DNA of 64,000 nt from Candidatus Hydrothermales bacterium. GTDB lineage: Bacteria > Hydrothermota > Hydrothermia > Hydrothermales > JAJRUZ01. Where the stretch lies: NCBI GenBank assembly GCA_039630575.1, contig JBCNUW010000002.1:76668-140667 (forward strand). Reading direction: 5' to 3'. This document shows positions 11,870-60,500 of the stretch, piece by piece. Within the stretch, counting starts at the first letter, position 1. Each line of letters begins with the position of its first letter. Below the pieces are notes generated by a model. The model made no database searches, was not told the origin of the DNA, and saw only the letters and a program-made list of their open reading frames with translations. The translations under genes and the position numbers were made by a program.

Positions 11870-12147
11870 TTTAGCCTCCCCTTTAAAATTTTATTTTATA
11901 AGTTTTGTATTTTTCTTTTGCCTTTTCTTCTATATTTGGTTAAACTGTTAAAAAAAAATTTGGTTTTGTATTTGTTCCCCTTTCATAAAATTTTCTTTTC
12001 TTTCTAAACCTATAAACATTATCAACTGTCCTTTTAAGTCTTAAATCTTATAAAAAGTGATTTCTACTTCACTTTTTTAATTCATTTATTACTTAATTTT
12101 AATTATAACGGATATGATCAGACATTTTAAAATCCTATCTATCTTAA

Positions 12148-12647: not shown

Positions 12648-12907
12648 TAATTTTTATCTCAAGTTTTTAAAATCTATCCTCATCAATTTCATTTTCTTCA
12701 AACCCTTTTTACTTTTTTTATTTCTTTGCTCATCAAACTTTCAATTTGCTTTCAAATAAATAAGTTTTTCTTCAATTTTTTTATCTACCATCTTTTCCCT
12801 CATTTCCTGATCTTAAGCTCTTTAGTAAGTGATTTTTAAATAATTCCCCGAATCCTTAACTTGATTAGTTTTGCTATGTCTTTATTTACTCTTTTATACT
12901 TAATTAA

Positions 12908-14164: not shown

Positions 14165-14219
14165 AATTAAATCACAAATTTGAAAAAAAGAAAAAAAATT
14201 TTTTAAAATACAAAACAAC

Positions 14220-20853: not shown

Positions 20854-20973
<120 letters not shown>

Positions 20974-45005: not shown

Positions 45006-45016
45006 TTAAATTAAAA

Positions 45017-45047
45017 GCCCCTCCCAAGAAGAAATAAAGGGAGGGGC
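45017..45047 (-). terminator. Rho-independent terminator (9-bp GC stem) after the BNR/T9SS gene
   Basis: GCCCCTCCC-aagaagaaataaa-GGGAGGGGC is a perfect 9-bp stem. On the minus-strand transcript the stem is followed by TTTTAATTT. Confidence 0.7.
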
Positions 45048-45078
45048 CTTTTATAAATCTCTAAACTTCTGCTATTTT

Positions 45079-46803
45079 CTATTCAGTAACAACAAGTTTT
45101 AAATTACCCTGGATATCTCCCTTATATTTCAAGAAGTATATTCCAGATTTGAGGTTAGAAACCTTTATTTCGTTATTTCCTTCTTTAACGGATACGGTTT
45201 TAGATGTAATTCTCTTTCCTGATACATCAAAAATATCAAATACCATTTTTCCATTTAAAGGTGATACAAATCTGATAGCTCCTTTATCAAAAACATTTCC
45301 ATTAAAGGTTAGCTTGTTCAAAACTAATTTATCCTTTGAGCTTTCGAAAATACTCGTAACTGGAATATAACCTGTTAAAATATAAGTAGGTACTGTTCCG
45401 CCAAGTGCATAAGTGTTATAATGAATATCAAGTCCCGCATTTGCACCATCCCATGCTCTTGGAACATTGAAGAGAAGCCATAATTTATAATCATTTGAAG
45501 GAGTAAATACATGCTTTATTGTGTGAACTTTATGTTCAATCTTATCATCTGTAGGTTGATTTGCCTCGTCTCTTGTAATGTTATATGGCGCAGACCAAGT
45601 AGCTCCACCATCAAGTGAATATTTTACATAGACATCAGTCCACCCATACCTACGATTAGGAACATAATCAATTGTATGGTATGCAACATAAGTAACGAAG
45701 AGTATGTTGCGAACATGATCAATTGTAAGTTCAATATTTGCAAAAAATGTTAAATCATCAGGGTCTATAATTGTATAGGTTGCTGTAGGTGTAACAAGAT
45801 AAGCACCATTCCCAGAGACAAATGTATCAGTCCCAAAAACTATCGGATTTGTAAAGTAACATGTAGTTGTCAAAAGTGCCATAGGTGTTGTTGAATTAAG
45901 AAGGGCAAAATCCCAGTAATTTACATACCAAAGATAATCAACAATATAATCTATTCCTTGAAATCTAAAAGTATCAACTGGGACATTAAAATAAAGGGGA
46001 ATACTTGTCCATGTAGCTCCATCGTCATTAGATACTTTAACAGTATCTGGTCCTACAAGAGCTGCAAGTGTCCCACCCAAATAATCCATTAGCCATACAT
46101 CTCCAGGGTGGTTTGGGAAAAGTGTAGCTGGAGGGTCAGGATCAATAAAAGCAAGTCTCCACCACCAATGAGTGAAGTAGTTATTATCTTGACCTACAAG
46201 AAAATTAACAAAATTTCCCATATCGTTTGAGGCATTTCCAAAACTCCTATATCCTACAAATCCAGGAGTCTGAATGAAGTAGGTATAAATATTTCCTTGT
46301 GGTAAAGCACCATCAGATGGAACTGTAGAAATAGCACCTTCATAAGGTGTTCTAACTGTAGAGTATGTTAGAATAAAAGTGTCACTGTTACCCATCCATG
46401 GACCTACATTCGGATATCTTCCGGCTCCATCTATATTGTATGGCCATATTCTTGTCCAAGTGTTCCCACCATCTTGAGAAAAAACAAGAGCTAAACGTCC
46501 TGTTCCAGGATAAGCAGGGTTATCAGATAATCTTCTATAAGTGAAAAATACACAGGATTGATCAGGTGATGTATTTATTGGTTTTGGTGCTGTATACAAA
46601 GTTGAATACTGATTGGGCATAGTATCTATATAAGCAATAGGTATTGTAGGATACGTCGGAAGTGCGGAAGGATAGATATCTGAAGTATTTTTAAAATCCT
46701 CCCGATCAATTATTAAATGATCCTTTACAATAGGTCTTATGGTTCCTGCAAACAGAAATCCTACAAGAAAAACAGTCAGTAGTACTTTTTTATTTTTACT
46801 CAT
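45079..46803 (-). CDS. Secreted BNR/Asp-box repeat protein with T9SS C-terminal sorting domain
   Basis: Signal peptide. Asp-boxes SQDGGNTWT, SNDDGATWT, SLDGGATWS. C-terminus ...VFDIFDVSGKRI...SGIYFLKYKGDIQGNLKLVVTE (Por_Secre_tail). Confidence 0.7.
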   Translation of the reverse strand: MSKNKKVLLTVFLVGFLFAGTIRPIVKDHLIIDREDFKNTSDIYPSALPTYPTIPIAYIDTMPNQYSTLYTAPKPINTSPDQSCVFFTYRRLSDNPAYPGTGRLALVFSQDGGNTWTRIWPYNIDGAGRYPNVGPWMGNSDTFILTYSTVRTPYEGAISTVPSDGALPQGNIYTYFIQTPGFVGYRSFGNASNDMGNFVNFLVGQDNNYFTHWWWRLAFIDPDPPATLFPNHPGDVWLMDYLGGTLAALVGPDTVKVSNDDGATWTSIPLYFNVPVDTFRFQGIDYIVDYLWYVNYWDFALLNSTTPMALLTTTCYFTNPIVFGTDTFVSGNGAYLVTPTATYTIIDPDDLTFFANIELTIDHVRNILFVTYVAYHTIDYVPNRRYGWTDVYVKYSLDGGATWSAPYNITRDEANQPTDDKIEHKVHTIKHVFTPSNDYKLWLLFNVPRAWDGANAGLDIHYNTYALGGTVPTYILTGYIPVTSIFESSKDKLVLNKLTFNGNVFDKGAIRFVSPLNGKMVFDIFDVSGKRITSKTVSVKEGNNEIKVSNLKSGIYFLKYKGDIQGNLKLVVTE

Positions 46804-46858
46804 TTAAAACCTCCTTTTTTTTAGGGAATTGAACCCTTCTTTGTTTTTTATATTATAT

Positions 46859-47743
46859 CTAATCATTCATAAGCTCTTCAATCTTTAAAAGAATTTTCAG
46901 ATGTGAAGATGGGTCAAAAGGGTCATCAGGATAATCTATCCAACCTGATAACTTTAACACATCAACTGCATTTGCGTAAAGTCCTTCTTTAAAGTAAACA
47001 TAAGCAGCTGCTCCAAGTATGTTAGTGAATTTAATAAAAGGATAGTGAGGAAAATAGAAAGCCCTACTTCTTTTTGCAAGTGAATAGAGATATTCAGCAG
47101 ACAAAGATCTTTTATCTTGAGCAAGATAAATCAAACCAATCCCTGCCCATGCCCAGAAGAATATATCGTCTGTTGGACTTTGAGGTTTATAATAGGTATA
47201 GTCAATATAAGTTACAGTATCAGGTGGTGTCCCTTTAAAATAAACAAGAGTATCATCAAAATAAATTGGGCTGTGAACATCAGCTGGTGCTTCGATAACA
47301 TTTGCGATCCATACTATATTCCTCTTTTTTGTCTTTATCGCCCAAGTGGCTCCGTAAGGTAAAGACTGTGGCCTTATAACAGTAGCTACTTCCTTAAACC
47401 TTCTCTCGACAAGAGATATTCCGTCAATTGCAAGTATAAGAGAAAAATAAGAAAGAGCCGAAGATAGATCATAATCCTTTTTTGAAATTAAAGTATAACC
47501 TTTACCAAGTAAAGCTTCTCTATCACGTAGATTCAAAGTTATAAGAGAATCAAACCAGAATTCTGCAACATCAAATTCTCCCCTATCATAATAATCCCAA
47601 GCCCTCTGAAGTATAAGATCCCTCGAGGGTTCTGCCTCAAATTCAGGTTCTTCTTTCTTACATGACATAAGAAAATATATTATTGAAAAAAACACAAAAA
47701 GATATTTTATTTTTTTCATTTTCCCCTCCTTATTTTGTATCAA
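46859..47743 (-). CDS. Lipoprotein with TPR-like repeats
   Basis: Signal peptide with lipobox-like LMSC. Helical repeats. Confidence 0.45.
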   Translation of the reverse strand: MIQNKEGKMKKIKYLFVFFSIIYFLMSCKKEEPEFEAEPSRDLILQRAWDYYDRGEFDVAEFWFDSLITLNLRDREALLGKGYTLISKKDYDLSSALSYFSLILAIDGISLVERRFKEVATVIRPQSLPYGATWAIKTKKRNIVWIANVIEAPADVHSPIYFDDTLVYFKGTPPDTVTYIDYTYYKPQSPTDDIFFWAWAGIGLIYLAQDKRSLSAEYLYSLAKRSRAFYFPHYPFIKFTNILGAAAYVYFKEGLYANAVDVLKLSGWIDYPDDPFDPSSHLKILLKIEELMND

Positions 47744-50700
47744 AAACTATAAGCTTTTTCTTTATCACTGAAAAGCCCTTTATATCAGCCTTTATAAAGT
47801 ACACTCCATGTGAAGGAAACATTAAGTTAAACTCATAAATTCCAGGTTCTCTTTCTCCATCAATTATATCATAAACTTTTCTTCCCGTTGAATTATAAAT
47901 TGACAATTTTACATCTGTCTTTATGGGGACATAAAGCAAAACTTTACCCTCATCCCTTTTCAAAAGATGATCTACTTTCAATATTGGATAGCTCTTTACA
48001 CTTCCGCCAGTCCTTACCTGGTAAATACCAAAAGCATTTGTCTCAAATACAAATTTCCCTTCAGATCTCTCTACAAATCCCTCCACAGGAACCCATCCGA
48101 ACTCCTCATCATATCTAAATATTCCTGTTCCCTCAGTCAACAATGAAGGATCAATAATTTCTACAACAAAAGTATGAGCCAACTTTTTACCTCTACTTCC
48201 TACCATGAAAACATCAGATTTTCCCTCCTTTGAACCTGGCACAATAATATCTACAGCCTCTTTGTTAATCTTTGAAAGTGTTAAGAATAAATTATTTACA
48301 TTAGATGGAAACCTCAATTTCACTGAACCATCCGAAGAGGCATATACACCACCTCCTTCAACATAATATGTGGGAACTGGAAGAACAACATCAACTCCGT
48401 TACCAGTTGTATCTTCAACATATGCAGTAAAAGTGTAAATTGTCGATTTCCTTAAAAGTTCTTTTGATGTGGTATAAAAGGCTATAGGAGCAGCACCTGC
48501 CAAGTTGGTAAGATTCTCATCTCGAATTAGAGTTCTTCCTGCCTCAGATATTTTAAGAATTACTCCTTCCTCCCTTGCATCCTTAAAGATTTTTCTTCTG
48601 TTCCACACATATACATCAACAAAATTGTCAATTATTGGATTTTGCAAGACTATCATAATTGGATAAGGAGCTTCAGTATCCCTACCCCTTGCAGTACTGT
48701 AAACTCTTCTTGGATCTTTATTTATTACAACTATTTTTTGCCTTTTAACTGTTTGGTTGTCACAAAGACATATGGAGTAGATATTTTTAGAAGAGTCAAT
48801 AGGGAAAAGTCTGTTAACTTCAATTGTAGTATCAATAATATTACCTTGAGCATCTCTTACAAATACATACCTCACATCATAAACTTCTATATAAGTAATC
48901 CAGTTACCTTGCCTATCGTAATAAGAAGCCTCGTCTGATACACTTAATTTAAGTGTATGTTTTTTAGCATCTGGGTTGTGTCTATAGATTATGTAAGAAA
49001 ATGGTTCCTGTTGTATAAAACCATACCTTTCCAAAACAGTAGCTTCCTCACGTGGAAAAGTATTTATTAATCTAAAGTAGTAATCTTTATTGTCTCCAAA
49101 GACCCTATCTATAGCATTCGCTAAAGCCCAGGAAGTTATGTATGGATTAAATCTCTTCCATGTTCTTGATGTATCATCAAAAAGCTCTCTGATTTTTGTT
49201 AATCCGTATCTTTCTTTTATATATTCAAAAAGTGTAAATACTCTTGCTGTGCTAAATTCATTTGCCTCAGGTTCACCAAGTCCATGATACTTTGAAATAT
49301 TAAACATGTTTACATTTGTTCCTGTCGAATCGTAATATGAAGAAAGATCAAAAAGTCCGGGAACTCCAGTTATCAAAGGATTATTATAAAGAATAGAGTC
49401 TGTCCTTGATTTATAATTAGCAACAAGAAGTGCAGCTAAAGCTTTTCTTACAAGCTTATCCTCGTTAGGTTTTAAAACAAAAAGTCCCCTGTTAACAAAT
49501 TGATAATTAAATACAAACTTCTTTGCTATATCAGTAAGTGAAAGAAAACCACCAACTTTTCCAAGCATTTCAAAACCAACCTTCACATATATGGCATCCT
49601 TTAAATCCTGAAGCGGCTCTGAGTGTTTATCATGAAGGGTAAAAAGTGTAACAGGCATAATATCTGAAGGTGTGTATGGAGGGCTAGCATGATCATCGGG
49701 GGGAGTAACAAGATAAGGATTTATAACAAAATGAATATAAGATTCTGGGTACTCCCTCCCAAAATAGTTTCTAAACATTGACTTAATTTCCTCTAAGTCT
49801 ATATATAAAGTATCAGTAAACAAATTTTTAAAGGAATTCACAAAAGCATTAACAATTTCATCAGCTACATTAACACCTATTAATTTTGAAGATTCTGGAT
49901 TCTGTGGATCATACTTTTCATCAATTCCAGGATTGAAGTTCCAAACATAATTTCCACCACCAATATCCTTTAAATAAAATAGACCAGCCTCACAAGCATA
50001 CCATAACCTGTTATAGACATCAGGCTCAATATCAAAACCATTTAAAGCACCGTAATTTTTAAATACATCTAAACCTTTAGTAAAATGATTACCAAGATCA
50101 TCATATACACCTTCACCTTTAATTACTGCGAAGTAAGTCCCTATACCAGGATAACTACCACTAGGCTTTTCAGTTACCGAGAGAACATTCTTTCCTGAAA
50201 ATGAGGTTATAGGTGTAAAGGTTAAACCGTTATCAACAGAATAGTATGCACCATCAGTTGTTGCAAGATATATCCTTGCACCCGGTACTCCAGTCCCTTT
50301 AAGAGAATTAATTTTATAGTCATTGACCTGTGTCCAACTCGTTCCATCCCATCTAAAAAGACCTGAAGGAGTAACAGCAAGGATAAAAGAACTTGTTGCA
50401 TAAAGAATTTTAACCGAATCGTTCAGATTTCCAACTCTATTCCATTTTAAATAATACTCTAACCTTCTTTTTACTGTATCCCCCCTCATAAAAACAATAG
50501 TATCAAGTTTGCTGAAATAGACTCCTTCAGTTGTTCCTACGTAAACAAAAGTATCAACCTTACCAACCACAAGGGAAACTGATAGAGTCTTAATTGGATT
50601 TTTGACCAATGTGTCAATTAGTGTATTGTAAGGTAAAGTATCATTAATGTTATCCTTGAAAACAAAATTCTCCCTTAGTAATGAATCTAACGTTATGCTG

Positions 50701-51173
50701 TAAATTTTAATTTTTCCATCTGAAGAGACACCATATATTAGCTCAGGAGAAGGTATATACACAGCTCCTGTTCTTCTATAAGATAAAGAAAAATCAACAA
50801 TACCTTCTTCAAGTGGTCTTGAGAAAGCAAGCAAATTTGTATTATCTAAACTTGCAGTTCTGTAAACACCAAAACCGTCTACAAGCAACCATCCATATTT
50901 TCTCTGAGGAAGAGTTCCTGAAATTCTGTTTATCTTAAACTTTTTTACCGGAATTTTGTCATAGGGAGTCCATACACAAAAACGTAACTTCTTTAAATCT
51001 CCTCCTTCTTCGTAAGTAACTGAATCAATGTGTCTTAAAATTATGTTATCTTCATAGAAAGCAAGGGTAATTCCCCATCTTAGAAAAATTTGATTCTTAC
51101 TTTCCCCAGGAGTGTATGAAGCAAAGAGTCCAGAGAGAAAAAGTGTTAATAAAAGAAAAATCTTATTTTTCAT
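47730..51173 (-). CDS. Large secreted protein (1147 aa) with T9SS C-terminal sorting domain
   Basis: Signal peptide. C-terminus ...LSIYNSTGRKVYDIIDGEREPGIYEF...GVYFIKADIKGFSVIKKKLIVFDTK. AGGAGG RBS. Confidence 0.6.
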   Translation of the reverse strand: MKNKIFLLLTLFLSGLFASYTPGESKNQIFLRWGITLAFYEDNIILRHIDSVTYEEGGDLKKLRFCVWTPYDKIPVKKFKINRISGTLPQRKYGWLLVDGFGVYRTASLDNTNLLAFSRPLEEGIVDFSLSYRRTGAVYIPSPELIYGVSSDGKIKIYSITLDSLLRENFVFKDNINDTLPYNTLIDTLVKNPIKTLSVSLVVGKVDTFVYVGTTEGVYFSKLDTIVFMRGDTVKRRLEYYLKWNRVGNLNDSVKILYATSSFILAVTPSGLFRWDGTSWTQVNDYKINSLKGTGVPGARIYLATTDGAYYSVDNGLTFTPITSFSGKNVLSVTEKPSGSYPGIGTYFAVIKGEGVYDDLGNHFTKGLDVFKNYGALNGFDIEPDVYNRLWYACEAGLFYLKDIGGGNYVWNFNPGIDEKYDPQNPESSKLIGVNVADEIVNAFVNSFKNLFTDTLYIDLEEIKSMFRNYFGREYPESYIHFVINPYLVTPPDDHASPPYTPSDIMPVTLFTLHDKHSEPLQDLKDAIYVKVGFEMLGKVGGFLSLTDIAKKFVFNYQFVNRGLFVLKPNEDKLVRKALAALLVANYKSRTDSILYNNPLITGVPGLFDLSSYYDSTGTNVNMFNISKYHGLGEPEANEFSTARVFTLFEYIKERYGLTKIRELFDDTSRTWKRFNPYITSWALANAIDRVFGDNKDYYFRLINTFPREEATVLERYGFIQQEPFSYIIYRHNPDAKKHTLKLSVSDEASYYDRQGNWITYIEVYDVRYVFVRDAQGNIIDTTIEVNRLFPIDSSKNIYSICLCDNQTVKRQKIVVINKDPRRVYSTARGRDTEAPYPIMIVLQNPIIDNFVDVYVWNRRKIFKDAREEGVILKISEAGRTLIRDENLTNLAGAAPIAFYTTSKELLRKSTIYTFTAYVEDTTGNGVDVVLPVPTYYVEGGGVYASSDGSVKLRFPSNVNNLFLTLSKINKEAVDIIVPGSKEGKSDVFMVGSRGKKLAHTFVVEIIDPSLLTEGTGIFRYDEEFGWVPVEGFVERSEGKFVFETNAFGIYQVRTGGSVKSYPILKVDHLLKRDEGKVLLYVPIKTDVKLSIYNSTGRKVYDIIDGEREPGIYEFNLMFPSHGVYFIKADIKGFSVIKKKLIVFDTK

Positions 51174-51186
51174 CTTTTAACCTCCT

Positions 51187-52176
51187 TTAATATATAAAAT
51201 TTAAAGAAAGTCTATGAACAAAAGGTAATATACCCATATCATTGAAAGAATAACTCAATTTTAAAGCTCCAAATTTAATTTTTGTATTAAGACCAAAACC
51301 TAAGGAAAATCCACCTTCATCAAACTTCTCCTCTATCACTCTTTCACCAATTAAAAGGAAATATCCTGTCGAAAAATAAAAATTATTGAAATCAAACTTT
51401 ATACCACAATGAAAACTTTCATTATAATCTGTTGGATGCAAAAGTTCAAAGGTGCTTGTTATTTTTAAAAACTTTGAAGTATAGGGATCAACGGCTAGAC
51501 CTAACCTGAAAGTCGTGGGCAAAGGATAACTTGTATAAAACCTTTTATACTCATTCATCTGACCACCTTCATATAAATACTGAATATACTCACCAGAAGG
51601 CTTTAAGTCTGGCCCCAAATTTACAAAAGCCATTCCTAACCTGATTGTATAAAGTCCTGTATTGAAAACTGTTCCAGCATCAAAGGCTACACCCCTTGTT
51701 TTTGAGATTGAACCATAATTTTCTCCCACATACTTTATAGAAACTCCTGAAGCAAATCTATCTGTGAAATATCTTGAATAATTTAAACCAACCTGATAAG
51801 CATTGTAATTAAAAGTTTTACCCGTGGGACCCTCGACTGTCCACTCCTCCATATCTCCAGAGAAAAACCCTGAAACAAAGAATCCAAAATTCCCGTAAAA
51901 TCCCTGACTTTTAACAATTGAGATATAAGGAACTCTTGCATCTTCAAACCACATTGTATAACCTGTATATAACTCTAAACCCTTAACATCTGCTGTTCCT
52001 GAAGGATTCCAAAATACACTTGAAGCACCACTTGAAATAGCAGTATAGGCACCGCCCATTCCCATAGCCTCAGGAAGAAGAGGTATTGATAAAAAATCTG
52101 CTCCTACATTGCCCACCTTTTGCTGAGCATAAATAATCGTTAGTAAGGAAATAAATACTAATAAAAATTTTTTCAT
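51187..52176 (-). CDS. PorV/PorQ (LptO)-like outer-membrane beta-barrel, T9SS-associated
   Basis: Signal peptide, then GADFLSIPLLPEAMGMGGAYTAISSGASSVFWNPSG, resembling the PorV/PorQ N-terminal FL.I..ARA.AMGGA....WNPAG signature. Ends in an aromatic residue. About 330 aa. Confidence 0.5.
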   Translation of the reverse strand: MKKFLLVFISLLTIIYAQQKVGNVGADFLSIPLLPEAMGMGGAYTAISSGASSVFWNPSGTADVKGLELYTGYTMWFEDARVPYISIVKSQGFYGNFGFFVSGFFSGDMEEWTVEGPTGKTFNYNAYQVGLNYSRYFTDRFASGVSIKYVGENYGSISKTRGVAFDAGTVFNTGLYTIRLGMAFVNLGPDLKPSGEYIQYLYEGGQMNEYKRFYTSYPLPTTFRLGLAVDPYTSKFLKITSTFELLHPTDYNESFHCGIKFDFNNFYFSTGYFLLIGERVIEEKFDEGGFSLGFGLNTKIKFGALKLSYSFNDMGILPFVHRLSLNFIY

Positions 52177-52190
52177 TTAAAACCTCCCTT

Positions 52191-54299
52191 TTAGTCAAGT
52201 ATTACAAATTTTCCTATCTTTGTCTTACCCTCAGGTGTCTCAATCTTGTAATAATAAAATCCAGAAGATACTTTAACATTATTTTCATTTAGAAGATCCC
52301 AAGATTCAGTTCCTGTCAAATTGTTATGGTTTAAAAGCTTCACAAGCTTTCCACTTGCTGTGAATATATAAATCTTACATATTGGAGGAAGATTCTGAAA
52401 TTCAATCTTGCTGTAAAGTTCTGTTGCTGACCATTTTGCTGAACCTACGAAAGGATTTGGAACTACCTTAACATTCGAAAGATCACCCTCTTCAGCAGGC
52501 TCAGTTGTAATATAAAGAGGTATAGCACTACCATCCGGCCCTTTTTTGTAGTTTGTCTTTGGAGATTCAAGAGAATCCACATCCATAGCAGTTACAACAT
52601 AAAAGTAAGGAAAACCAACTTGAGCTGTTGTATCAACAAATGTGTGAGAAATATTTCCAAATAGATCTCTCTTAACCTCTGCTAAAAGTGTAAATCCCCT
52701 GGGTTCAAATACACTTCTATATACTCTATAAAGCAGAAAATCTGGTATGCCTTTTAATGGATCTACATAAACCTCTGCAGAGTTGTCCCATACAAGCAAA
52801 ACGCCCTTTTTGGTAAGCTGATACTTAAGGAGAGGAGTAGGAGGTGGTATTGGAATTTTCCAATGATCATCCTTTGCAGGGTCAAGTTTTGGTGGAGTAG
52901 GATGAGCAGGATCACCGGGATTCCCAGCATAATATGCTCTATAAGCCCATTCAAGAGTGTGTCTTGCACCCCTTAAAAAGCCTCTTCCCCAATAGTCGTC
53001 CATACCACCATTCAATCCTTGACCCACTCCAGCAATCCAAACAAATTTCAGTGTATCTCCACTTTTCAAAGTATAGGGTCCTACGGTATTTAAGAATCTG
53101 TAATCAAATTCCGCAGCATTAAGATCATTTGGATGTGGAGCATATCTATAATTCTGTGTAGCAGGGTGTTTACCCTTCATATATCTATACCTATCAAGAT
53201 CTGTTCCAGGGTCAGATTCCCAGTTCCACCACTGATGGGAAAAAGGTCTAATTATTCTACAGGTATCACCATTTTCTACCCATATAGAATCTGAAGGTGC
53301 TGGAGGCGCATAAATAAAAGCGCCAAAGTTGTAACCTGCAGACCTACCTCCTTCTTCACCAGTATCATCTCCAGGGACTGCAGGATCATCTGCATCGTAA
53401 ATATAACTCATGCCATAAGGAATCAGATAACCCGAAACTGTATCATAAGTTCCATCAGGCTTTTTTACTGGTATTTTTGAAACACAAGTTGTAAAATTAA
53501 CATGCTCCATTTCGTGATCACCCCAAATAAAGTAATCATCAGGTATCCCATCTGAAAATTCTATATAACCATCCTCTTGTCCATAAAAGCTTACCTTATC
53601 CACATTAGGTGGGAATCTAAAATTAGGACTCCACTCATTTGCTGTCCATCCCGAAAAGTGTACAAGATCATCTATATGAGGCTCACTTGCATCTGCTCCA
53701 GAAACATCACAATCATACCACATACCAACAAAGAATGAATCAAGTTGATCACCTATTCCTGGAATATCAGATGAGTCCTTATCAAAAGTTATATACATCT
53801 CATACGCGATAAAATCATTGTAAGGATCATTAGGCCAAGTTAATACTCTCCATAATACTTTTACCCCAAGATGTCTACCAGGACTGTTTCTTGGATTTGA
53901 TTTGGCATCATTATAGACAACAACAATATCAAAAACTGACTTTCCAGGACCAAGATAGTCTTTAAAGTTTATCTGTGAATTCCATTCATTTGCTGTATAA
54001 TCAGACTGAGTAACATAATATTCTCCCCTAACTTTTGCTCCAACCAAGAAGTAAGCAAGCCAAAGGTAATAATTATTTACAGCTGCACCACCTGGCCAAG
54101 TAAAACCCCAAAGATTAGCTGCAGCTTCCCCACCTAAAAATCCATAATTACTCATCCAGTTCCAAGCCTCAGGAATTGTCTGGTTATATATGGCCCTCGG
54201 ACCCTTAAATATTGTGATATCTTTTCTTTCAGGAGCAAGCTTATGAAAAGAAAAAAGGTTAAAAGATAAAAGTATTGTAAAAATGAAGAACTTCTTCAT
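52191..54299 (-). CDS. Secreted protein (702 aa) with FN3-like segment and T9SS C-terminal sorting domain
   Basis: Signal peptide. C-terminus VVPNPFVG...KIYIFTASGKLVKLL...SGFYYYKIETPEGKTKIGKFVILD is a canonical Por_Secre_tail. GGGAGG RBS. Confidence 0.65.
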   Translation of the reverse strand: MKKFFIFTILLSFNLFSFHKLAPERKDITIFKGPRAIYNQTIPEAWNWMSNYGFLGGEAAANLWGFTWPGGAAVNNYYLWLAYFLVGAKVRGEYYVTQSDYTANEWNSQINFKDYLGPGKSVFDIVVVYNDAKSNPRNSPGRHLGVKVLWRVLTWPNDPYNDFIAYEMYITFDKDSSDIPGIGDQLDSFFVGMWYDCDVSGADASEPHIDDLVHFSGWTANEWSPNFRFPPNVDKVSFYGQEDGYIEFSDGIPDDYFIWGDHEMEHVNFTTCVSKIPVKKPDGTYDTVSGYLIPYGMSYIYDADDPAVPGDDTGEEGGRSAGYNFGAFIYAPPAPSDSIWVENGDTCRIIRPFSHQWWNWESDPGTDLDRYRYMKGKHPATQNYRYAPHPNDLNAAEFDYRFLNTVGPYTLKSGDTLKFVWIAGVGQGLNGGMDDYWGRGFLRGARHTLEWAYRAYYAGNPGDPAHPTPPKLDPAKDDHWKIPIPPPTPLLKYQLTKKGVLLVWDNSAEVYVDPLKGIPDFLLYRVYRSVFEPRGFTLLAEVKRDLFGNISHTFVDTTAQVGFPYFYVVTAMDVDSLESPKTNYKKGPDGSAIPLYITTEPAEEGDLSNVKVVPNPFVGSAKWSATELYSKIEFQNLPPICKIYIFTASGKLVKLLNHNNLTGTESWDLLNENNVKVSSGFYYYKIETPEGKTKIGKFVILD

Positions 54300-54314
54300 C
54301 TTTTACCTCCTTTT

Positions 54315-57300
54315 TTAAAATCCACCAATTTGAACATAGAAACCTATTCTTGTCTGTCTCCTTGCAGACCATACACCAATGTTTTTGACCTCACCCTCAG
54401 GATCACCAAACTGATCGTACCAATTTTCATCTTCGATGCTAACTAAGTTTCTATAGTTAAATATGTTATAAATATCCACGAAAAGTTGTAAGTTTCCTTT
54501 ACCTCTTAGTAAAGGAAAGTTCTTATAAATTCTTAAGTCAGCATCTTTTGTAGATGGAAGTCTCCTTGCATTTATTAGTTCAATAGCATCCCTCTCTGAC
54601 CTAATAGGAGGTGTCCATGGATAACCTGAACCGTAACTGTATTGAAGTGAAATACCATAGTCAGAAAGCCTTAAAAACTTCCTATTCTTTGGAACTATCC
54701 AGGAAATAACTGCATTTATAGTATGGGTCTGATCCCAATCAAGAGGAGATTCCCTTGGAGGAAGAGGATAACCTAGCCACTGCCAATAATAACCTAAATA
54801 TGGAGAAGAGAAGGAACCTCTTGCCACCTGGAATGTATAGTTTATATTAAGTGAAAGATAGGGTATAAAGGTTCCAGCAGGTCTTTTAATTATCTCTATT
54901 TCAATTCCCCTTGAAGAACCATAGTCCTCATTATAAAAAGTTGTAACATTAGTTAAAGGATCTACTTTATAAAACTTTGTTCTTGCCCAATTCTGGATAT
55001 CCTTGTAGAATGCAGTAACATCTACAATAAATTCAGGCGTGAATCCATGCTTAACCCCAAGTTCATAAGAAACTGTTTTTTCTGGCTTAAGTTTTGGATT
55101 ACCAATTATGGGGAAAGCACCTGTTACTACGTAATTAAAGTTTGTCTGATTATATGATGGAATCTGATAATAGTGCCCATAGGTAAAATGCAAAACATCC
55201 CTTTCAGTAATAGGATGAGATACACCAATTCTTGGAGAAACAATCCAGTAAGGCTTTGTATTCTCAGCTACTGAAAAGTATTTAACACCATACACAGGAT
55301 CAACTACAAAGGCATCCTGTGGTCTTGTCTCAAGAATAGGTGAATAATAACCATCATTATCTATATAATCAAACCTTACACCAACTCTTGCGTACATTCC
55401 TTCCATTTCAATTTTATCTCTCAAAAAGAAGGCAAACTGATAAGGCTTTACCTTATGAGCATTCAACCAATCAACAAAGGTATAAGTAGTATCAAAAGAT
55501 CTCCTTGAAAGTGGAGGATTAACCATCTGAAGATAAATATTTCCTCCTGAGGCAAAATCAACATCATAGACCATAAGGTTAATCCTCTTAAACTCAGCTC
55601 CCATCAGAATCTCATGTCCAGGAGCAGTTTTAGTTTTCTTTGTGAGCTGAGCTGTCATCTTCCAAGATAGGGTAAAGTGATTGTTTCTTAAATAACCCCA
55701 TTGATCCCTCTCAAAATTATGGGGATAAGGTAAATAAAGGTTACCAACAGATAAAATTGTCCTTCTTATTTGTGAACCTGGTGGTAGAAAACTCATTCTT
55801 TGAGTTTCAAAAAATCTCCAATCTAGCTGTAAAGGATAAGGATAGTATACTCCTTGCATATCTACAAAAGTATCTATACTTCCATCTGGAAGTACCACTT
55901 CAATTACATCAAAATCTTGAACAAAACTCTGACCCCATCCGTATCTGTTTAGGGGGGCATTCATATCTGTTGGCCACCATTGAGGATGTGCTGCACTCTG
56001 TCCAGGATAAAAACCATAGACAAAATCTTCCCACCAGAAGAACGGAAGTTCTACATAACCTTCTTTCTCATTAACATTAAAATTCTCCCTCTTTAAATTT
56101 GTCATCTTTGCTATAGAGTCAATTCCATACCAATAATTAGGATCTATAACCCATGTACCTCTAACAGGGTCATAATAAACTCTCTTAAAGTAATCGATAT
56201 CTATTTCAGCGAATCCATCAAGATCTCTATCATCAAAATCGTCTACACCATCTTTATCCATATCTTCAAATATATTTCTCTTTTGAGACCTCTGGAAAAA
56301 CCCAAAGTTTATCTCGTTCATATATTTCTGAGCTACAAGCCAGTTTATACCACCAGAGAAACTCGTCAAATACCTATGAAACTCAAAACTTAAATCAGGT
56401 AATAGTCTAAATTGAGGATCATAAACTCCAAATCTTTCAAACCTGTAAAAACCTGTAAAATAAAGAAGAAGATAAAGTGAAGGTCTTACATCCAATCTCC
56501 ATGAAAGACCGTAGTTTTTTATCCTCTTTTTCTCATCAGCATAAACTGGAAATCTTCCCTTGTGAGTAATGTAATCACCACTTATCAGAAAGCTTGCAGC
56601 CTCTCTCCTCATAAAGGGAATGGGACCAGATAGAGAAAATTCATTTAATATTTCATCCCTTCTGTGTCTTTTTCCTTTAGTAGTTCCCATATCCTTATTT
56701 ATACCAAGCAGGAAATCCCTGATATAGTCTCCCCTTTCTACATTAAAGAAACTATTAATACCTTCTCCGAGAAAACTTAAATTCGTTGTTGAAAATCTAT
56801 ATTCTGAACTGTATTTATCCCCTCCACCTTTTGTAACAACATTTATCATACCTCCTGCAGCACTTCCTTGATCAACGTCAAATCCACCAGTTGAAACACC
56901 TGCTTCCTCCATTGCAAGAAGTGGTATTCCAGGAGCTGTAAAGGCTGTAAATGGATCCCTTACCTCAACACCATTTACAACATAAACAACCTCATCAGGT
57001 CTTGATCCCCTTATGTGCAACCCTCCCCTTTCCACAACACCCACAGAAATCTCAACAACACCTTGAATACTCATTACAGGAATGTTAGCCACTTCCTCTT
57101 TCTTCATAATTTTTCTTGATTCTGGAAGATCAGCTCTTATTAGCTCTTCTTTTGCCTCTACAACAATAGGTGGAACCTCAACAGTAGTTGGTTTTAAGGC
57201 AACATTCACCTCAACAGTTCTATCGGCTTCTACAGCAACACCTTTTATAATACTCGGCTGATATCCCGCATAGGTCACTTCAATATCATATTTACCAGGT

Positions 57301-57503
57301 GGAACTTTTAAGATGACAAAATATCCTTGGTCATCAGTATATGTTCCCATTTGGGTTCCAACTATTTTTACGATTGCGAAGGGGAGACCCTCTCCGGTCG
57401 TTGCATCAGTGACACGACCGGAAATTTTTCCTGTAGTTCCTGCCCACAGGATACTTACTAAAAATCCTGCAAGCAGGAAACTGCACATTATTTTTAACCT
57501 CAT
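54315..57503 (-). CDS. SusC/RagA-like TonB-dependent outer-membrane receptor (carboxypeptidase-regulatory-like N-domain + plug + 22-strand barrel)
   Basis: GKISGRVTDATTGEGLPFAIVKIVGT...GYFVIL (CarbopepD_reg-like). Plug region IQGVVEISVGVV...GVEVRDPFTAF. 1062 aa. Terminal ...YVQIGGF. GGAGGG RBS. Confidence 0.7.
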   Translation of the reverse strand: MRLKIMCSFLLAGFLVSILWAGTTGKISGRVTDATTGEGLPFAIVKIVGTQMGTYTDDQGYFVILKVPPGKYDIEVTYAGYQPSIIKGVAVEADRTVEVNVALKPTTVEVPPIVVEAKEELIRADLPESRKIMKKEEVANIPVMSIQGVVEISVGVVERGGLHIRGSRPDEVVYVVNGVEVRDPFTAFTAPGIPLLAMEEAGVSTGGFDVDQGSAAGGMINVVTKGGGDKYSSEYRFSTTNLSFLGEGINSFFNVERGDYIRDFLLGINKDMGTTKGKRHRRDEILNEFSLSGPIPFMRREAASFLISGDYITHKGRFPVYADEKKRIKNYGLSWRLDVRPSLYLLLYFTGFYRFERFGVYDPQFRLLPDLSFEFHRYLTSFSGGINWLVAQKYMNEINFGFFQRSQKRNIFEDMDKDGVDDFDDRDLDGFAEIDIDYFKRVYYDPVRGTWVIDPNYWYGIDSIAKMTNLKRENFNVNEKEGYVELPFFWWEDFVYGFYPGQSAAHPQWWPTDMNAPLNRYGWGQSFVQDFDVIEVVLPDGSIDTFVDMQGVYYPYPLQLDWRFFETQRMSFLPPGSQIRRTILSVGNLYLPYPHNFERDQWGYLRNNHFTLSWKMTAQLTKKTKTAPGHEILMGAEFKRINLMVYDVDFASGGNIYLQMVNPPLSRRSFDTTYTFVDWLNAHKVKPYQFAFFLRDKIEMEGMYARVGVRFDYIDNDGYYSPILETRPQDAFVVDPVYGVKYFSVAENTKPYWIVSPRIGVSHPITERDVLHFTYGHYYQIPSYNQTNFNYVVTGAFPIIGNPKLKPEKTVSYELGVKHGFTPEFIVDVTAFYKDIQNWARTKFYKVDPLTNVTTFYNEDYGSSRGIEIEIIKRPAGTFIPYLSLNINYTFQVARGSFSSPYLGYYWQWLGYPLPPRESPLDWDQTHTINAVISWIVPKNRKFLRLSDYGISLQYSYGSGYPWTPPIRSERDAIELINARRLPSTKDADLRIYKNFPLLRGKGNLQLFVDIYNIFNYRNLVSIEDENWYDQFGDPEGEVKNIGVWSARRQTRIGFYVQIGGF

Positions 57504-57520
57504 ATAAACCCTCCTTGCTC

Positions 57521-58129
57521 TTATTTTGTTAATCTAAATATAAAAGGAATAACAACCCTAACTGAAACTGGTATACCTGCCTGTTTGGCAGGTTTAAATA
57601 AACATTGAAGGGCAGCCCTTTCTACAGGCTCCCTAAATATTTCATTATCAACAAAAATCTTTTCTATTTTAACAACCCTACCATCTGGTCCAACTATCAC
57701 AAGAACCTTTGCAGTTCCCTGTATCCCTAACTTTCTTGCAACCTCAGGATACTCTGGCTCAACCTTTTTTATCAATACAGGCTTTTCTTCAACCTCAAAC
57801 TCATTAAATACTTGACCTGGCTCTGGTAAAGGTATATCAATTTCTACATCACCTGCTGTACCCTCTTGTATCGTTTCCTGAACATTTTCTTCCTCTTCCT
57901 CCTCTGCCTCCTCAATTTCTACAGGCAATTTAGGCTTTGGTGGTGGTTGAGGAAGCTGAATCTCCTCGAGCTTTTCTTGAATATTTTCCATAAGTATGTC
58001 TCTTTGCCCTCTTGATACATAAGGATTTACACTGACCTTCACCCCTAAAAACAATACTATAAAAAGAATAAAGGTCAGTGAAAGAGCTATTTGGGTAATA
58101 AGATCCCCTTTTTCTCTTGGATCAAACAT
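57521..58129 (-). CDS. tonB: Energy transducer TonB
   Basis: N-terminal TM. Pro/Glu-rich linker PQPPPKPKLPVEIEEAEEEEEE. C-terminal TonB domain EPEYPEVARKLGIQGTAKVLVIVGPDGRV. Confidence 0.75.
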   Translation of the reverse strand: MFDPREKGDLITQIALSLTFILFIVLFLGVKVSVNPYVSRGQRDILMENIQEKLEEIQLPQPPPKPKLPVEIEEAEEEEEENVQETIQEGTAGDVEIDIPLPEPGQVFNEFEVEEKPVLIKKVEPEYPEVARKLGIQGTAKVLVIVGPDGRVVKIEKIFVDNEIFREPVERAALQCLFKPAKQAGIPVSVRVVIPFIFRLTK

Positions 58130-58172
58130 AATTTATTTTAGGAAATTAAATTGTTATTTTTCAACAAAAAAA

Positions 58173-58586
58173 TCATTTTTTTTCAAAATCAGTTCTGAAA
58201 CTTATTCTCAAAGCTTTTGCCTCTCTTAAAGACTCAGTTACCATATTTACATATTTATATTTAACCCTTTTATCTGCCATTATCATTGTTAAAAGCTGAG
58301 GATCTTCAAACATGAGCCTTCTAAATTCCTTTTCTATATAACTTGTATCTACTGGTAAATCATGAACAAAAATATCACCATTGGAAGATATCCATATGTA
58401 AGCTAAATGTTTATGCTTCTTTATCCTTTGCGTTTGTTCAGCCTGAGGAAACTGAATAACCTTAAGTCCCCTTTCTTTCCTAAAAACAGTTGTTAACATA
58501 AAAAATATTATAAGAAGAAAGGCTATATCAGCCATTGAAGCAGTAGGTATAACTACCTTCGGCTTAGCTATTTTCTCTATTTTCAT
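58173..58586 (-). CDS. exbD: Biopolymer transport protein ExbD/TolR
   Basis: ADIAFLLIIFFMLTTVF TM, then periplasmic domain. 137 aa. Confidence 0.75.
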   Translation of the reverse strand: MKIEKIAKPKVVIPTASMADIAFLLIIFFMLTTVFRKERGLKVIQFPQAEQTQRIKKHKHLAYIWISSNGDIFVHDLPVDTSYIEKEFRRLMFEDPQLLTMIMADKRVKYKYVNMVTESLREAKALRISFRTDFEKK

Positions 58587-59089
58587 ATTTCCTCCCCTAT
58601 TCCTTTAATTGAAATCTTTCTCGGTATTTTCTCATCATCGTCCAAAATACCATTTCTATTTTTATCAAGAAGACCCCTTTTCCACATTATTGAATCAACT
58701 TCTTCATAGGAGAGCAAAACTTCATCAAATACATCTATCATAATATTATAAACTGAATTGACATTTGTTTTAATAAAGATAACTATTTTATCTGGATTGT
58801 TAAGTATTTCATTTTTAATCTTCTCTCTTAACATGCTAAAGGGAGTTTCAGTGAGTTCTTCCTTAAAGAAAATTTTCCCCTCAGGATTTATAAATATAGA
58901 TAAGAGATTTTCCTTTTTAATTTTTATTACCCTTTCCTCTGACTTTTCTGGCAAAATAATCTTTAAACCTCTATCTCTTGAAAATATAGTGGTGACCATA
59001 AAGAATATGATAAGTAAAAAGGCTATGTCAGCCATTGAGGCAGTTGGTATCTCTGCCTCGTACTTAAATCTACCCTTAAAAAGTGACAT
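58583..59089 (-). CDS. exbD: Biopolymer transport protein ExbD/TolR (second copy)
   Basis: ADIAFLLIIFFMVTTIF. 168 aa. Confidence 0.75.
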   Translation of the reverse strand: MSLFKGRFKYEAEIPTASMADIAFLLIIFFMVTTIFSRDRGLKIILPEKSEERVIKIKKENLLSIFINPEGKIFFKEELTETPFSMLREKIKNEILNNPDKIVIFIKTNVNSVYNIMIDVFDEVLLSYEEVDSIMWKRGLLDKNRNGILDDDEKIPRKISIKGIGEEI

Positions 59090-59093
59090 AATT

Positions 59094-59759
59094 TTATTTT
59101 ACTTTAGTTTCAAGAACATATTCAATTAAAGTGTTTGCTGCTTCCTCCATTTCTCTTGAAAAAGCATTAATCCTTGAGGAAAAAAAGGTGTGAAAAATTG
59201 CAACTGGTGCTGCTATTAAAAGACCTGTAGCAGTTGTAATTAGAGCTTCAGAAATTCCTGCAGCTACAAGAGTTGGCTCAACTTCTCCAGCCGCTGCTAC
59301 TGCTTGAAAGGCTCTAATCATACCTGTTACTGTTCCTAAAAATCCTAAAATAGGAGCTATAGTTGTAAAGGAAGCAAGCCAAAGCATACCCCTATCAAGG
59401 AAAGCAAGCTCAGTTGTTGCTCTCCTTGCAACATTTTCTTCTATTATTTCCTTAGAATTTCCTGCTTTCTCAAGAACAGCCTGACAGATTTTTGAAACAA
59501 CAGAAGTATTCCTTGAGCAATAGTCCATTGCTTCCGACAAACCACTAGTTTCAATCAAATCAATAACATCAACAACAAATCTTCTTGGATTTGTTCTTAA
59601 CCTAAAAAGAGTATAAAACCTTTCAATAATTATCACAACAGATAATATAGCAACAAGCAGTAAAAGCCACATTACTCCTCCACCCTTATGGAAATAGTCT
59701 ACAAGACTTTCTATTACTCCTTGCTGGCCTATTATTAAAGTTGTTAAAATTCCACTCAT
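59094..59759 (-). CDS. exbB: MotA/TolQ/ExbB proton channel protein
   Basis: Three TM segments with the conserved C-terminal TM2/TM3 region ...APILGFLGTVTGMIRAF... Confidence 0.8.
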   Translation of the reverse strand: MSGILTTLIIGQQGVIESLVDYFHKGGGVMWLLLLVAILSVVIIIERFYTLFRLRTNPRRFVVDVIDLIETSGLSEAMDYCSRNTSVVSKICQAVLEKAGNSKEIIEENVARRATTELAFLDRGMLWLASFTTIAPILGFLGTVTGMIRAFQAVAAAGEVEPTLVAAGISEALITTATGLLIAAPVAIFHTFFSSRINAFSREMEEAANTLIEYVLETKVK

Positions 59760-59805: not shown

Positions 59806-60156
59806 TCATCTCGAAACCCAATAAAGATAGATGGATGTTGCTAAAAATGAAAAAAGAGACCCTAATAAAAAAAACAAATTCTCAAAAAAACTAAGCTGAA
59901 AAGAATTCAAAATAATTTCAAAAAGTTCAAAACCAGCTACCTTTAATCTTGGATAAACAAAAACAATTTTATAAAAATGAATTATAGAAGCAAGAAGAAG
60001 AAAAAAAGCCCCGATTAACGGAAAAACAGTAAGAAATTTTGGTTTTCTCAAAAGCATTAGCATTCTTGAAAGTATACCAGAAAAATAAAAAAGTGAAAAA
60101 ACAAATAAAAGAGTCCCAATAAAAAATAGAATTTCTGCCCTTATATCAAATTTCAT
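59806..60156 (-). CDS. Small polytopic membrane protein (116 aa)
   Basis: About 4 hydrophobic segments. Co-directional with and downstream of ftsE. Confidence 0.4.
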   Translation of the reverse strand: MKFDIRAEILFFIGTLLFVFSLFYFSGILSRMLMLLRKPKFLTVFPLIGAFFLLLASIIHFYKIVFVYPRLKVAGFELFEIILNSFQLSFFENLFFLLGSLFSFLATSIYLYWVSR

Positions 60157-60500
60157 CTTTTAAATCCTCCTTTTACCACATTTAGAAAACTCCTTAAACT
60201 TATAAAGGTTAAAAGCGAACCAATAAAAAATAAACCATAACAAATTAAGCTCTCAAGTGGAGTCAATTTCACTTTACCCTGAAAAGCTGAATAAAGGGAA
60301 AATATTCCGTAAAGAAAAAGACCAGTTGGAGCTATCATTATGAAAAACCAACCAGTTTTAAGTTTTAAAACCTTTTCAAATCTCCTTGCAATTATTCCGG
60401 TAAACACAAAGGAAACCCAAAGTAAGAATATAGCAAAAAGTAATATATAATTTGAAAATCTTATATATAAAAACTCTTGCTGAGGTGTTAAATCAAACAT
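60153..60500 (-). CDS. Small polytopic membrane protein (115 aa)
   Basis: 3-4 hydrophobic segments. Immediately downstream of ftsE, where ftsX would be expected. Confidence 0.4.
   Translation of the reverse strand: MFDLTPQQEFLYIRFSNYILLFAIFLLWVSFVFTGIIARRFEKVLKLKTGWFFIMIAPTGLFLYGIFSLYSAFQGKVKLTPLESLICYGLFFIGSLLTFISLRSFLNVVKGGFKR

Follow-up and report, generated by a model that had tools for sequence, protein, structure and literature searches.

TonB-dependent transporters that work with surface partners are central to feeding in Bacteroidota; the partners described so far are lipoproteins, and the principle has seemed confined to that phylum. The secretion system of type IX (T9SS) offers another way of holding proteins at the surface. 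Two of its components, PorU and PorZ, have tails that are left uncleaved (PMC11285876), and there are cognate pairs of barrel and tail that are encoded side by side (PMC9143113, PMC12618676). In the type-B system, the barrel is both shuttle and surface anchor, and sets the final destination of the cargo (PMC9143113, PMC12618676). BamG is a FadL-type barrel that keeps a surface protein in place next to a larger barrel (PMC12578637). Here we analyze a stretch of 64,000 nucleotides (the window) from a Candidatus Hydrothermales bacterium (GenBank assembly GCA_039630575.1, contig JBCNUW010000002.1, positions 76,668 to 140,667), and within it a cluster of ten genes at window positions 45079-59759 on the minus strand. 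The cluster includes a TonB-dependent receptor (TBDR), a tail-bearing protein of 702 aa that we call p702, and a barrel of the PorV/PorQ family. Across several phyla, these three are conserved as one genetic unit. The cluster had been singled out in an earlier reading made from the sequence alone (the sequence-only reading) as one unit in a non-canonical lineage. Both descriptions hold, as the gene order is kept across several phyla and the host belongs to Candidatus Hydrothermales, the WOR-3 lineage, which the current NCBI taxonomy places under Caldifarciminales.

To collect relatives of p702, we scanned one genome per species and inspected the best 80 loci for gene order. Relatives are encoded by 195 species genomes, and p702 has homologues in WOR-3, Marinimicrobia, Fermentibacter, KSB1 and LCP-89. 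The best 80 loci, as far as their contigs reach, keep six genes in one order: TBDR, p702, PorV-like barrel, a protein of the 1147-aa type (900-1700 aa), a TPR lipoprotein and a protein of the 574-aa type. The order is present in a relative from WOR-3, in one genome of Marinimicrobia and on another large contig, and in nearly all loci the receptor gene is directly upstream of the p702 homologue. Chance adjacency of the module genes is excluded by this synteny across phyla. The loci carry the labels WOR-3, Hydrothermota, Caldipriscus, Calditrichota, KSB1, Neomarinimicrobiota and Gemmatimonadota, which are the submitters' own, and a few are clearly mis-binned. Loci L030/L036/L037, L057, L066 and L072, deposited as Thermotogota, Actinomycetota, Cytophagia and Woesearchaeota, are likely binning or labelling errors. 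The module is mostly single-copy, and only two of the assemblies behind the 80 loci contribute two copies. Amongst 40-47 orthologous loci, the mean pairwise identity is 0.43 for p702, 0.39 for the receptor and 0.35 for the PorV-like barrel, and it is 0.21 for the 1147-type protein, 0.21 for the TPR lipoprotein and 0.22 for the 574-type protein. The pairwise identities of the six families correlate with each other at 0.81-0.95, values that we do not use as evidence of interaction because shared phylogeny raises all of them.

Several observations identify the receptor, p702 and the barrel, a triad, as the core and evolutionary unit of the module. In three loci (L024, L051, L087) there is a tandem extra copy of the receptor, partner and PorV-like barrel only. 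The extra partner is about 1000-1100 aa long, and its similarity to p702 is mostly in the tail and in a few motifs. The p702 family extends far beyond the orthologous group. When 1.84 billion representative proteins are searched exhaustively by profile, 1,312 clusters (at 50% identity) have E <= 1e-30, and 6,440 have E <= 1e-10. Two distant members from this search (P0259 and P0239) each sit between a CarboxypepD_reg-type receptor and a PorV-like barrel, and downstream of one of the two there are also a GWxTD protein and exbB-exbD-exbD-tonB. A scan of metagenomes that started from a divergent p702 subfamily provides 80 further loci, 44 of them with DNA on both sides of the p702-type gene, and in 37 of the 44 a TBDR gene comes directly before it and a PorV-like gene directly after it. 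Variants of the arrangement also appear. GWxTD-domain proteins are found beside triads that lack the 1147-type, lipoprotein and 574-type genes (L005 at 13185-15729, L091 at 11370-12923, L098, L105 and L061), which points to an alternative accessory set. In the metagenome loci L118, L119 and L152, three p702-like paralogues stand in tandem after one receptor, and the available DNA has no PorV-like gene. Table 1 gives the features of the window copy.

Table 1. The gene cluster of the window and its flanking features, in order of transcription (domain rows follow the protein to which they belong).
Feature	Position in window	Strand	Description
Two small polytopic membrane proteins	59806..60500	-	116 and 115 aa; directly upstream of exbB; genes overlap
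ExbB	59094..59759	-	221 aa; Ton motor proton-channel subunit; PF01618 98 bits
ExbD paralogue 1	58583..59089	-	168 aa; PF02472 70 bits
ExbD paralogue 2	58173..58586	-	137 aa; 4-nt overlap with the paralogue 1 gene; PF02472 77 bits
TonB	57521..58129	-	202 aa; N-terminal membrane helix, Pro/Glu-rich linker, TonB_C; PF03544 52 bits; TIGR01352 36 bits (cut-off 27)
TBDR	54315..57503	-	1062 aa; signal peptide, CarboxypepD_reg N-terminal extension, TonB-box-like motif, plug, large barrel; triad member 1
p702	52191..54299	-	702 aa; signal peptide, supersandwich, Fn3, special tail; triad member 2
p702, residues ~35-480	52860..54197	-	Galactose-mutarotase-like beta-supersandwich, by fold match
p702, residues ~485-600	52500..52847	-	Fibronectin type III (Fn3); Foldseek matches to Fn3 pairs, HMM match to Fn3-like 3mpc
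p702, residues ~611-702	52194..52469	-	p702-type T9SS C-terminal domain; closest to uncleaved PorZ/PorU tails
PorV/PorQ-family barrel	51187..52176	-	329 aa; 14-stranded, FadL-type; NF033709; triad member 3
1147-aa protein	47730..51173	-	Signal peptide, Ycf48/BNR/PorZ-like propeller region, M30-like domain, Ig-like, type-A tail; fast-evolving
1147-aa protein, residues ~430-700	49074..49886	-	M30-like domain; lugdulysin-like, without HExxH
TPR lipoprotein	46859..47743	-	294 aa from TTG (likely start ATG 47719); lipobox FLMS/C, then KKEEPE
574-aa protein	45079..46803	-	BNR/Asp-box propeller-like body and type-A tail; TIGR04183 29.6 bits
574-aa protein, residues ~500-574	45082-45306	-	Type-A tail, ordinary class
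Intrinsic terminator	45015..45050	-	Closes the run; 13-bp G+C-rich stem, then T-run

The most conserved protein of the module is p702, the alignment of which has 35 invariant columns, many of them Asp, Glu, His or Trp. Invariant residues include D196, D211, D254, H355 and W357 and the motifs DCDV, PHIDDLV and WWNWESD. In the AlphaFold2 model (pLDDT 88, pTM 0.85), three parts are confidently predicted, namely a galactose-mutarotase-like supersandwich, an Fn3 domain and a tail like that of PorZ. The tail provides the sole Pfam or NCBIfam match in the protein (TIGR04183, 25.8 bits for a cut-off of 23), and it is not of type B (TIGR04131, 15.6 bits for a cut-off of 35). This C-terminal domain (CTD) is also the best-conserved part of p702, with an identity of 0.49 versus 0.42 in the body. 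It resembles the tails of PorZ and PorU both by sequence and in the model, and the resemblance stops there. In the PorU family (NF033707) only the p702 tail aligns, to model positions 988-1093, and there is no match to the C25 peptidase. PorZ combines two beta-propellers with an uncleaved tail, and p702 matches it in the tail only. Larger paralogues of p702 and its distant relatives, scanned for domain fusions, show nothing consistent (two dockerin matches, one CBM_56 and one weak M6).

The tail of p702 belongs to a class of its own, genetically tied to a PorV-like barrel and a receptor. We built two tail hidden Markov models (HMMs), one p702-type and one ordinary type-A, and applied them to independent metagenome loci. 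Tails of the p702 type have a median of 85 bits with the p702-type HMM and 20 with the ordinary one, with a PorV-like gene directly downstream in 53/72 cases and a receptor directly upstream in 38/50, while for ordinary type-A tails the medians are 16 and 73 bits and the same neighbours are found in 0/31 and 0/19 cases; because the loci were chosen for having p702-like genes, these fractions are no population estimates, but the contrast within loci is valid. The sequence-only reading described three CTD-bearing cargo proteins together with a shuttle. All three proteins do bear tails, two of them ordinary and that of p702 of the separate class. For the TIGR04183 model, that reading is borne out in p702 and in the 574-aa protein and not in the 1147-aa protein, which at 20.0 bits stays under the cut-off. 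It had also remarked that something other than a SusD occupies the place of a SusD, as p702 does, directly downstream of the TBDR.

The third member of the triad was correctly anticipated as a PorV/PorQ-like barrel, and has 151 bits with the general family model NF033709 (cut-off 90). All 43 barrel orthologues match this model at E <= 0.001, a count that uses E-values and not the bit cut-off. The barrel is below the cut-off of every equivalog we compared, with 43/250 bits for PorV (NF033710), 66/220 for PorQ (NF033711) and 33/325 for PorV2 (NF052325). The 43 orthologues behave alike, with best E-values of 9e-32, 5e-39 and 1e-27 for the same three models, and weak PorP matches appear in only three of the 43.

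The receptor has the architecture of the Oar subclass, that is a CarboxypepD_reg extension (PF13620, 67 bits), a plug and a barrel (PF00593, 90.5 bits for a cut-off of 27). The plug (PF07715) is weak in the window copy, 18.8 bits for a cut-off of 23.9, and is matched without a weak mark in the orthologues of L005, L007, L089 and L091. The receptor nearly reaches the Oar-type barrel model PF25183 (29.4 bits for a cut-off of 30), which the L091 receptor passes. The TonB-box-like motif of the window copy reads PPIVVEAKE, and 47 TBDR orthologues keep the motif vVVEAkrPlIqkD together with an RGGR in the plug. Assigning the receptor to the SusC/RagA architecture was half right. The N-terminal domain is SusC-like, but the protein has 50 bits with TIGR04056, for a cut-off of 368, in an alignment confined to that domain, and the best of 40 TBDR orthologues has only E 1e-26.

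The ExbB, ExbD and TonB_C domains are all above their Pfam thresholds within one operon. The Ton proteins are below the E. coli-type NCBIfam equivalog cut-offs, with TolQ and TolR models scoring similarly, and Pfam/NCBIfam scans of the cluster find no Pal, TolA or TolB. A complete Ton set beside the receptor, as claimed in the sequence-only reading, is thus present here, but it is not a general property of the module. Amongst the loci examined, exbB-exbD-exbD-tonB accompanies the module in no lineages but the WOR-3 clade, Fermentibacter and a single metagenome lineage (L005 and L091 have Ton genes in the module operon), and in Marinimicrobia, Calditrichota and KSB1 the module is preceded by tig-clpP-clpX instead. 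Being attached in so few lineages, the Ton set is a lineage-specific addition that we leave outside the core. The conserved TonB-box-like motif and plug, together with the repeated linkage to Ton genes, argue for an energized, gated barrel.

The three accessory proteins evolve faster. The window copy of the 1147-aa protein is 100% identical to MEN3043853.1. A word-based homologue search with it returns only close relatives and matches to the propeller and the tail, and an AlphaFold model built from eight sequences was discarded at pLDDT 47. A profile of 40 syntenic orthologues is more informative. It matches lugdulysin in the PDB (7bb9/7bb8) with E 1e-32 over about 270 positions (406-677), identifying a domain of the M30 peptidase family. 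The HExxH motif is present in 0/40 orthologues, so that the domain is an ancient pseudoprotease; the window copy reads NYQFV at that place and is additionally missing the downstream Glu. The protein has no match to PorU (NF033707). While TIGR04183 is below cut-off in the window copy, PF18962 is matched in 40/40 orthologues. For the tails of both the 1147-type and the 574-type proteins, the matches are to FlgD-Ig-like domains and to tails known to be cleaved, those of gingipain and of Flavobacterium cargo. In the 574-aa protein, BNR repeats are below threshold (22.9 bits) in the window copy and are matched in 9/36 orthologues; amongst the orthologues there are also matches to BNR_2 and Reelin-B, and occasionally to CBM_56. 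The statement that the cargo has no assignable catalytic domain except the BNR repeats is to be amended, as the BNR match of the window copy is sub-threshold. In the TPR lipoprotein, Cys28 is invariant in 40 orthologues and the N-terminal TPR pair is kept. We reject a SusD-like identity for this lipoprotein, as SusD models match none of the 40 orthologues at E <= 0.1. At least two acidic residues occur in the six positions after the lipobox Cys in 27/40 orthologues. Acidic residues after the Cys are a rule of thumb for surface export of lipoproteins in Bacteroidota (PMC12578637), which is suggestive, and only that, of a surface-exposed protein.

All ten open reading frames are found on the minus strand, as in the sequence-only reading, and HMM scans agree with the gene identities that it proposed. 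The spacings it gave (13-73 nt) need correction. From exbB to the gene of the 574-aa protein they are 4, -4, 43, 17, 15, 14, 13, -14 and 55 nt, where the -14 between the genes of the 1147-aa protein and the lipoprotein is counted from the TTG start and becomes +10 if the start is ATG 47719; the extremes of the run are the 4-nt overlap of the two exbD genes and 55 nt. The claim of a strong terminator only after the last gene stands. The hairpin GGCCCCTCCC...GGGAGGGGC, then TTTTAATTT, at about 45015-45050, folds with -25 kcal/mol (z = -2.65), and a scan for consensus terminators overlooked it because its loop has 13 nt. Terminator-like matches within the cluster are not in excess of chance (15, for 9.9 +/- 3.7 expected from shuffled sequence). 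An Rfam scan of the window finds only 5S rRNA and tRNA, and no riboswitch upstream of the receptor.

The tight same-strand run extends upstream of exbB through two small membrane proteins as well as ftsE and argS. The pair of small membrane proteins (116 and 115 aa), for which we obtained no family assignment, is kept in the WOR-3 relatives L001, L008, L009, L019 and L029. Their membership of the unit is uncertain, and they may be extra Ton-associated subunits. On the other side, a gene for a 541-aa protein (43380-45005, minus strand) has its ATG only about 10 nt beyond the T-run of the terminator. The protein has a helical-repeat N-terminus and a weak Peripla_BP_6 match in an LpoA-like layout, and the gene has the same place after the module in L001, L002 and L009, close relatives within WOR-3, and not in other phyla.

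Elsewhere in the window, we find a McrBC-like restriction pair (323-4001, minus strand) consisting of a 699-aa AAA/STAND-type NTPase and a 542-aa protein that combines DUF2357 (152 bits) with a PD-(D/E)XK nuclease domain. On the same strand (4058-8459), a fused NuoE-NuoF (560 aa) is followed by the alpha subunit of a formate dehydrogenase (908 aa), extended at its N-terminus in a NuoG/HoxU-like manner, a pair that looks like a soluble NAD-linked formate dehydrogenase or an electron-bifurcating module. At 9917-11869 (minus strand) is a 650-aa protein with PEGA/CarboxypepD_reg-like domains, a SpoIID/LytB domain and a type-A tail (30 bits). A cell-wall-cleaving enzyme directed to the surface, as these domains suggest, is unusual, and could act on the walls of other cells. 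A 1355-aa protein (14220-18287, plus strand) has two CoA_E_activ ATPase modules (acyl-CoA dehydratase activase, 278 bits), and is of the double activase type. A lone 5S rRNA gene (20856-20972, plus strand, 112 bits) is found amid protein-coding frames, with no 23S or 16S in the 64-kb window.

What could this module do? The explanation that we favour, to which we give a chance somewhat short of even, is that the cluster encodes a TonB-dependent uptake complex with a surface partner that is anchored by a PorV paralogue of its own. The module would then probably be a non-Bacteroidota counterpart of the SusC/SusD nutrient-uptake pair. In the mechanism we propose, p702 would cross the outer membrane by the type IX route by means of its tail, and the tail would stay uncleaved and bound to the cognate PorV-like barrel, on the model of PorZ with PorQ and of type-B cargo on PorP-like barrels. 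The barrel-bound p702 would be positioned beside or over the receptor, where its supersandwich could capture a ligand and pass it on to the receptor for import, powered by the ExbB-ExbD2-TonB motor that is encoded alongside. The role of accessory binders, evolving fast and comparable to the additional surface proteins of the Bacteroides utilisomes, would fall to the propeller/pseudoprotease protein, the BNR protein and the TPR lipoprotein, the last of which may be surface-exposed. The principle would be that of SusC/SusD, RagA/RagB and BtuB/BtuG, achieved by tail-to-barrel instead of lipid anchoring. The physical complex, the retention of the tail, the direction of import and the ligand are all steps that we infer. 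As to the ligand, it is only the folds (the supersandwich, the BNR repeats and the peptide-binding type of the pseudoprotease) that suggest one containing glycan.

A number of observations weigh against this explanation. The unit has no active enzyme or regulator by Pfam and NCBIfam, so nothing in it points to a particular nutrient. An invariant, mostly single-copy module fits a housekeeping machine equally well as it fits a one-substrate transporter. Three tail-bearing proteins share one PorV-like barrel, which leaves the anchoring of the 1147-aa and 574-aa proteins unexplained. The supersandwich fold is also known outside carbohydrate contexts, for instance in the periplasmic domain of YidC. 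The full triad is missing in 7 of the 44 metagenome loci with DNA on both sides. Finally, a 1427-aa protein (P0195, L088 4741-9024) has the supersandwich at its C-terminal end, without a neighbouring receptor or PorV-like gene (L088 and L025 are from the same genome), and given this protein the supersandwich domain has uses outside the triad. As for the secretion route, there are no T9SS core genes (gldK/L/M/N, sprA/sov) within the 64-kb window; T9SS genes are reported in several non-Bacteroidota phyla of the Fibrobacterota-Chlorobiota-Bacteroidota (FCB) group, WOR-3 not being named (PMC11285876).

Four other explanations account for parts of the same evidence. The fold of p702, which is typical of carbohydrate-active enzymes and of aldose epimerases, in which it is catalytic, its many invariant Asp, Glu, His and Trp, the BNR repeats of the 574-type protein with occasional CBM_56 matches in orthologues, and the presence of a protease-derived domain could all indicate a conventional polysaccharide or protein utilization locus, where the tail-bearing proteins are degradative enzymes and the receptor imports the products. 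This was the proposal of the sequence-only reading, and it does not survive well. The receptor fails the SusC model, the loci show no SusD, carbohydrate-active enzyme, active peptidase or regulator, the roughly 120 orthologues scanned with Pfam/NCBIfam have no catalytic domain, and the sole protease-like domain is inactivated. The unit is also missing an inner-membrane transporter and periplasmic or cytoplasmic enzymes, and it keeps the same content across phyla from hot springs to the ocean, mostly as a single invariant copy instead of varying with the substrate. We consider such a locus unlikely. The same protease-derived domain and the same invariant, single-copy conservation across phyla are what one would expect if the module were a machine, namely a local T9SS complex for attachment or sorting, equivalent to PorU/PorV/PorZ/PorQ, that processes or anchors cargo with the receptor as an associated barrel. 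In agreement with this, the barrel is in the PorV/PorQ family with PorQ as its best equivalog match, the p702 tail is nearest to those of PorZ and PorU, the sizes of 702 and 1147 aa are similar to those of PorZ (776 aa) and PorU (1158 aa), and the 1147-type profile weakly matches the propeller region of PorZ (E 1e-5). However, the protease-like domain, without metal ligands in 40/40 orthologues, is of M30 type and not the C25 of PorU, p702 is without propellers, the PorU and PorZ models are unmatched outside the tail, many triads in the wider family do without 1147-type and 574-type genes, and the strict pairing with a TBDR and the Ton genes are left unexplained. A T9SS machine thus has, in our estimate, a low probability.

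The remaining two explanations differ from the uptake complex in what the receptor does. It might work outward as Oar does, in a Ton-driven export of the neighbouring tail-bearing protein or proteins, to be received by the PorV-like barrel. The architecture and size match those of Oar (PF13620 extension, plug, 22-strand-type barrel; 1062 versus 1061 aa), PF25183 is missed by a fraction of a bit in the window and passed in L091, the partner gene always comes after the receptor gene, and Ton genes are in the same cluster as they are at the Oar locus (PMC6434023). On the other hand, that architecture is shared by all SusC-like importers (PMC6434023), and in most phyla Ton genes are missing from the module. 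The partners have T9SS-type tails, for which a dedicated route is known, so export in the manner of Oar is unnecessary; moreover, this genome has tail-bearing proteins away from any receptor, such as the 650-aa protein at 9917-11869. We judge outward transport very unlikely, and equally poor is the chance of its strictest form, a TonB-energized exporter or insertase that hands the p702-type protein directly to the PorV-like barrel, independent of SprA/GldKLMN. If true, the latter would make of the triad a self-contained device for secretion and display in phyla without demonstrated SprA/GldKLMN machinery. Alternatively, the receptor-like barrel could be only a membrane anchor, and the module a surface structure, for example a coat, a platform for adhesins or a tether of the envelope. 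T9SS cargo builds surface layers in some Bacteroidota, most of the mass encoded here is predicted to be extracellular and beta-rich (Fn3, Ig-like, propellers), and there is no clue to a substrate, nor a riboswitch. Against this, the TonB-box-like motif and the plug are kept across phyla and Ton genes are repeatedly linked to the module, and we give a structural role very little probability.

For the uptake complex, we also considered muropeptides as the substrate, an idea that comes from a Marinimicrobia isolate living on muropeptides (PMC11652737) and from the SpoIID-like protein of the window. We set it aside. The paper on the isolate mentions no outer-membrane system (PMC11652737), and WOR-3 has its own genes for cell-wall synthesis, which we count against it.

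A full-text literature search for PorV or T9SS together with TBDRs in WOR-3, Marinimicrobia and related phyla, with incomplete coverage, finds no such unit described, and the NCBI names of the module proteins are "hypothetical" or "T9SS type A sorting domain-containing". Complexes of a transporter with a surface partner are already known, and so is the tail-to-barrel anchoring of T9SS cargo. What is new is the combination of receptor, partner and barrel, the class of tail, and the phyletic range. The module suggests that other FCB phyla (among them the abundant, uncultured Marinimicrobia, Calditrichota, KSB1 and WOR-3) have solved differently the problem that Bacteroidota solve with lipoprotein partners. 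A second suggestion is that cargo is addressed to particular sites in the outer membrane, here a transporter, with PorV paralogues and subtypes of tail as the labels. A named, testable unit would improve the annotation of many environmental genomes, and would offer those working on T9SS and on transporters a defined complex to purify.

Amongst known systems, the module shares with SusC/SusD, RagA/RagB, BtuB/BtuG and the utilisomes a large TonB-dependent barrel with a CarboxypepD_reg extension. In SusC/SusD-type systems as in the module, the gene of the surface partner always comes after that of the receptor, the pair duplicates as a unit, and more surface proteins are encoded downstream. The module differs in that the receptor fails the SusC/RagA model (50 versus 368 bits), in that the partner is a supersandwich-Fn3 protein with a secretion tail, neither a lipoprotein nor of the TPR/SusD fold, and in that a third gene, the PorV-family barrel, is obligatory. 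Unlike the polysaccharide utilization loci of Bacteroidota, it is without enzymes and regulators, and comes as one invariant copy and not as many diversified loci. With PorQ-PorZ and PorV-PorU of P. gingivalis, the module shares a PorV/PorQ-family barrel and a secreted protein with a PorZ/PorU-like tail, but the barrel is under both equivalog scores, p702 has neither beta-propellers nor a peptidase, and the pair is tied genetically to a TBDR, in lineages outside Bacteroidota. In type-B CTD cargo with PorP/SprF-like barrels (PMC9143113, PMC12618676), the gene with the special tail likewise adjoins that of its own barrel. In the module the barrel is PorV/PorQ instead of PorP/SprF, the tail is divergent type-A-like, and the destination appears to be a TBDR. 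Oar, a TonB-dependent transporter required for secretion of the PopC protease in Myxococcus xanthus (PMC6434023), is alike in domain architecture, in length and in having its own ExbB/ExbD/TonB set, whereas its locus has no PorV-like barrel or tail-bearing partner. The central domain of the 1147-type protein is homologous over about 270 residues (E 1e-32) to the M30 peptidases lugdulysin and hyicolysin, and differs from them in lacking HExxH, in its setting between a propeller-like region and Ig-like domains, and in the T9SS tail of the protein that contains it. Finally, BamG (PMC12578637) is, like the module barrel, a 14-stranded barrel of the FadL family, which is packed tightly beside a larger barrel and uses its extracellular loops to hold a surface protein; BamG is of the FadL/Toluene_X branch, holds a lipoprotein, and is part of an assembly machinery and not of a transporter.

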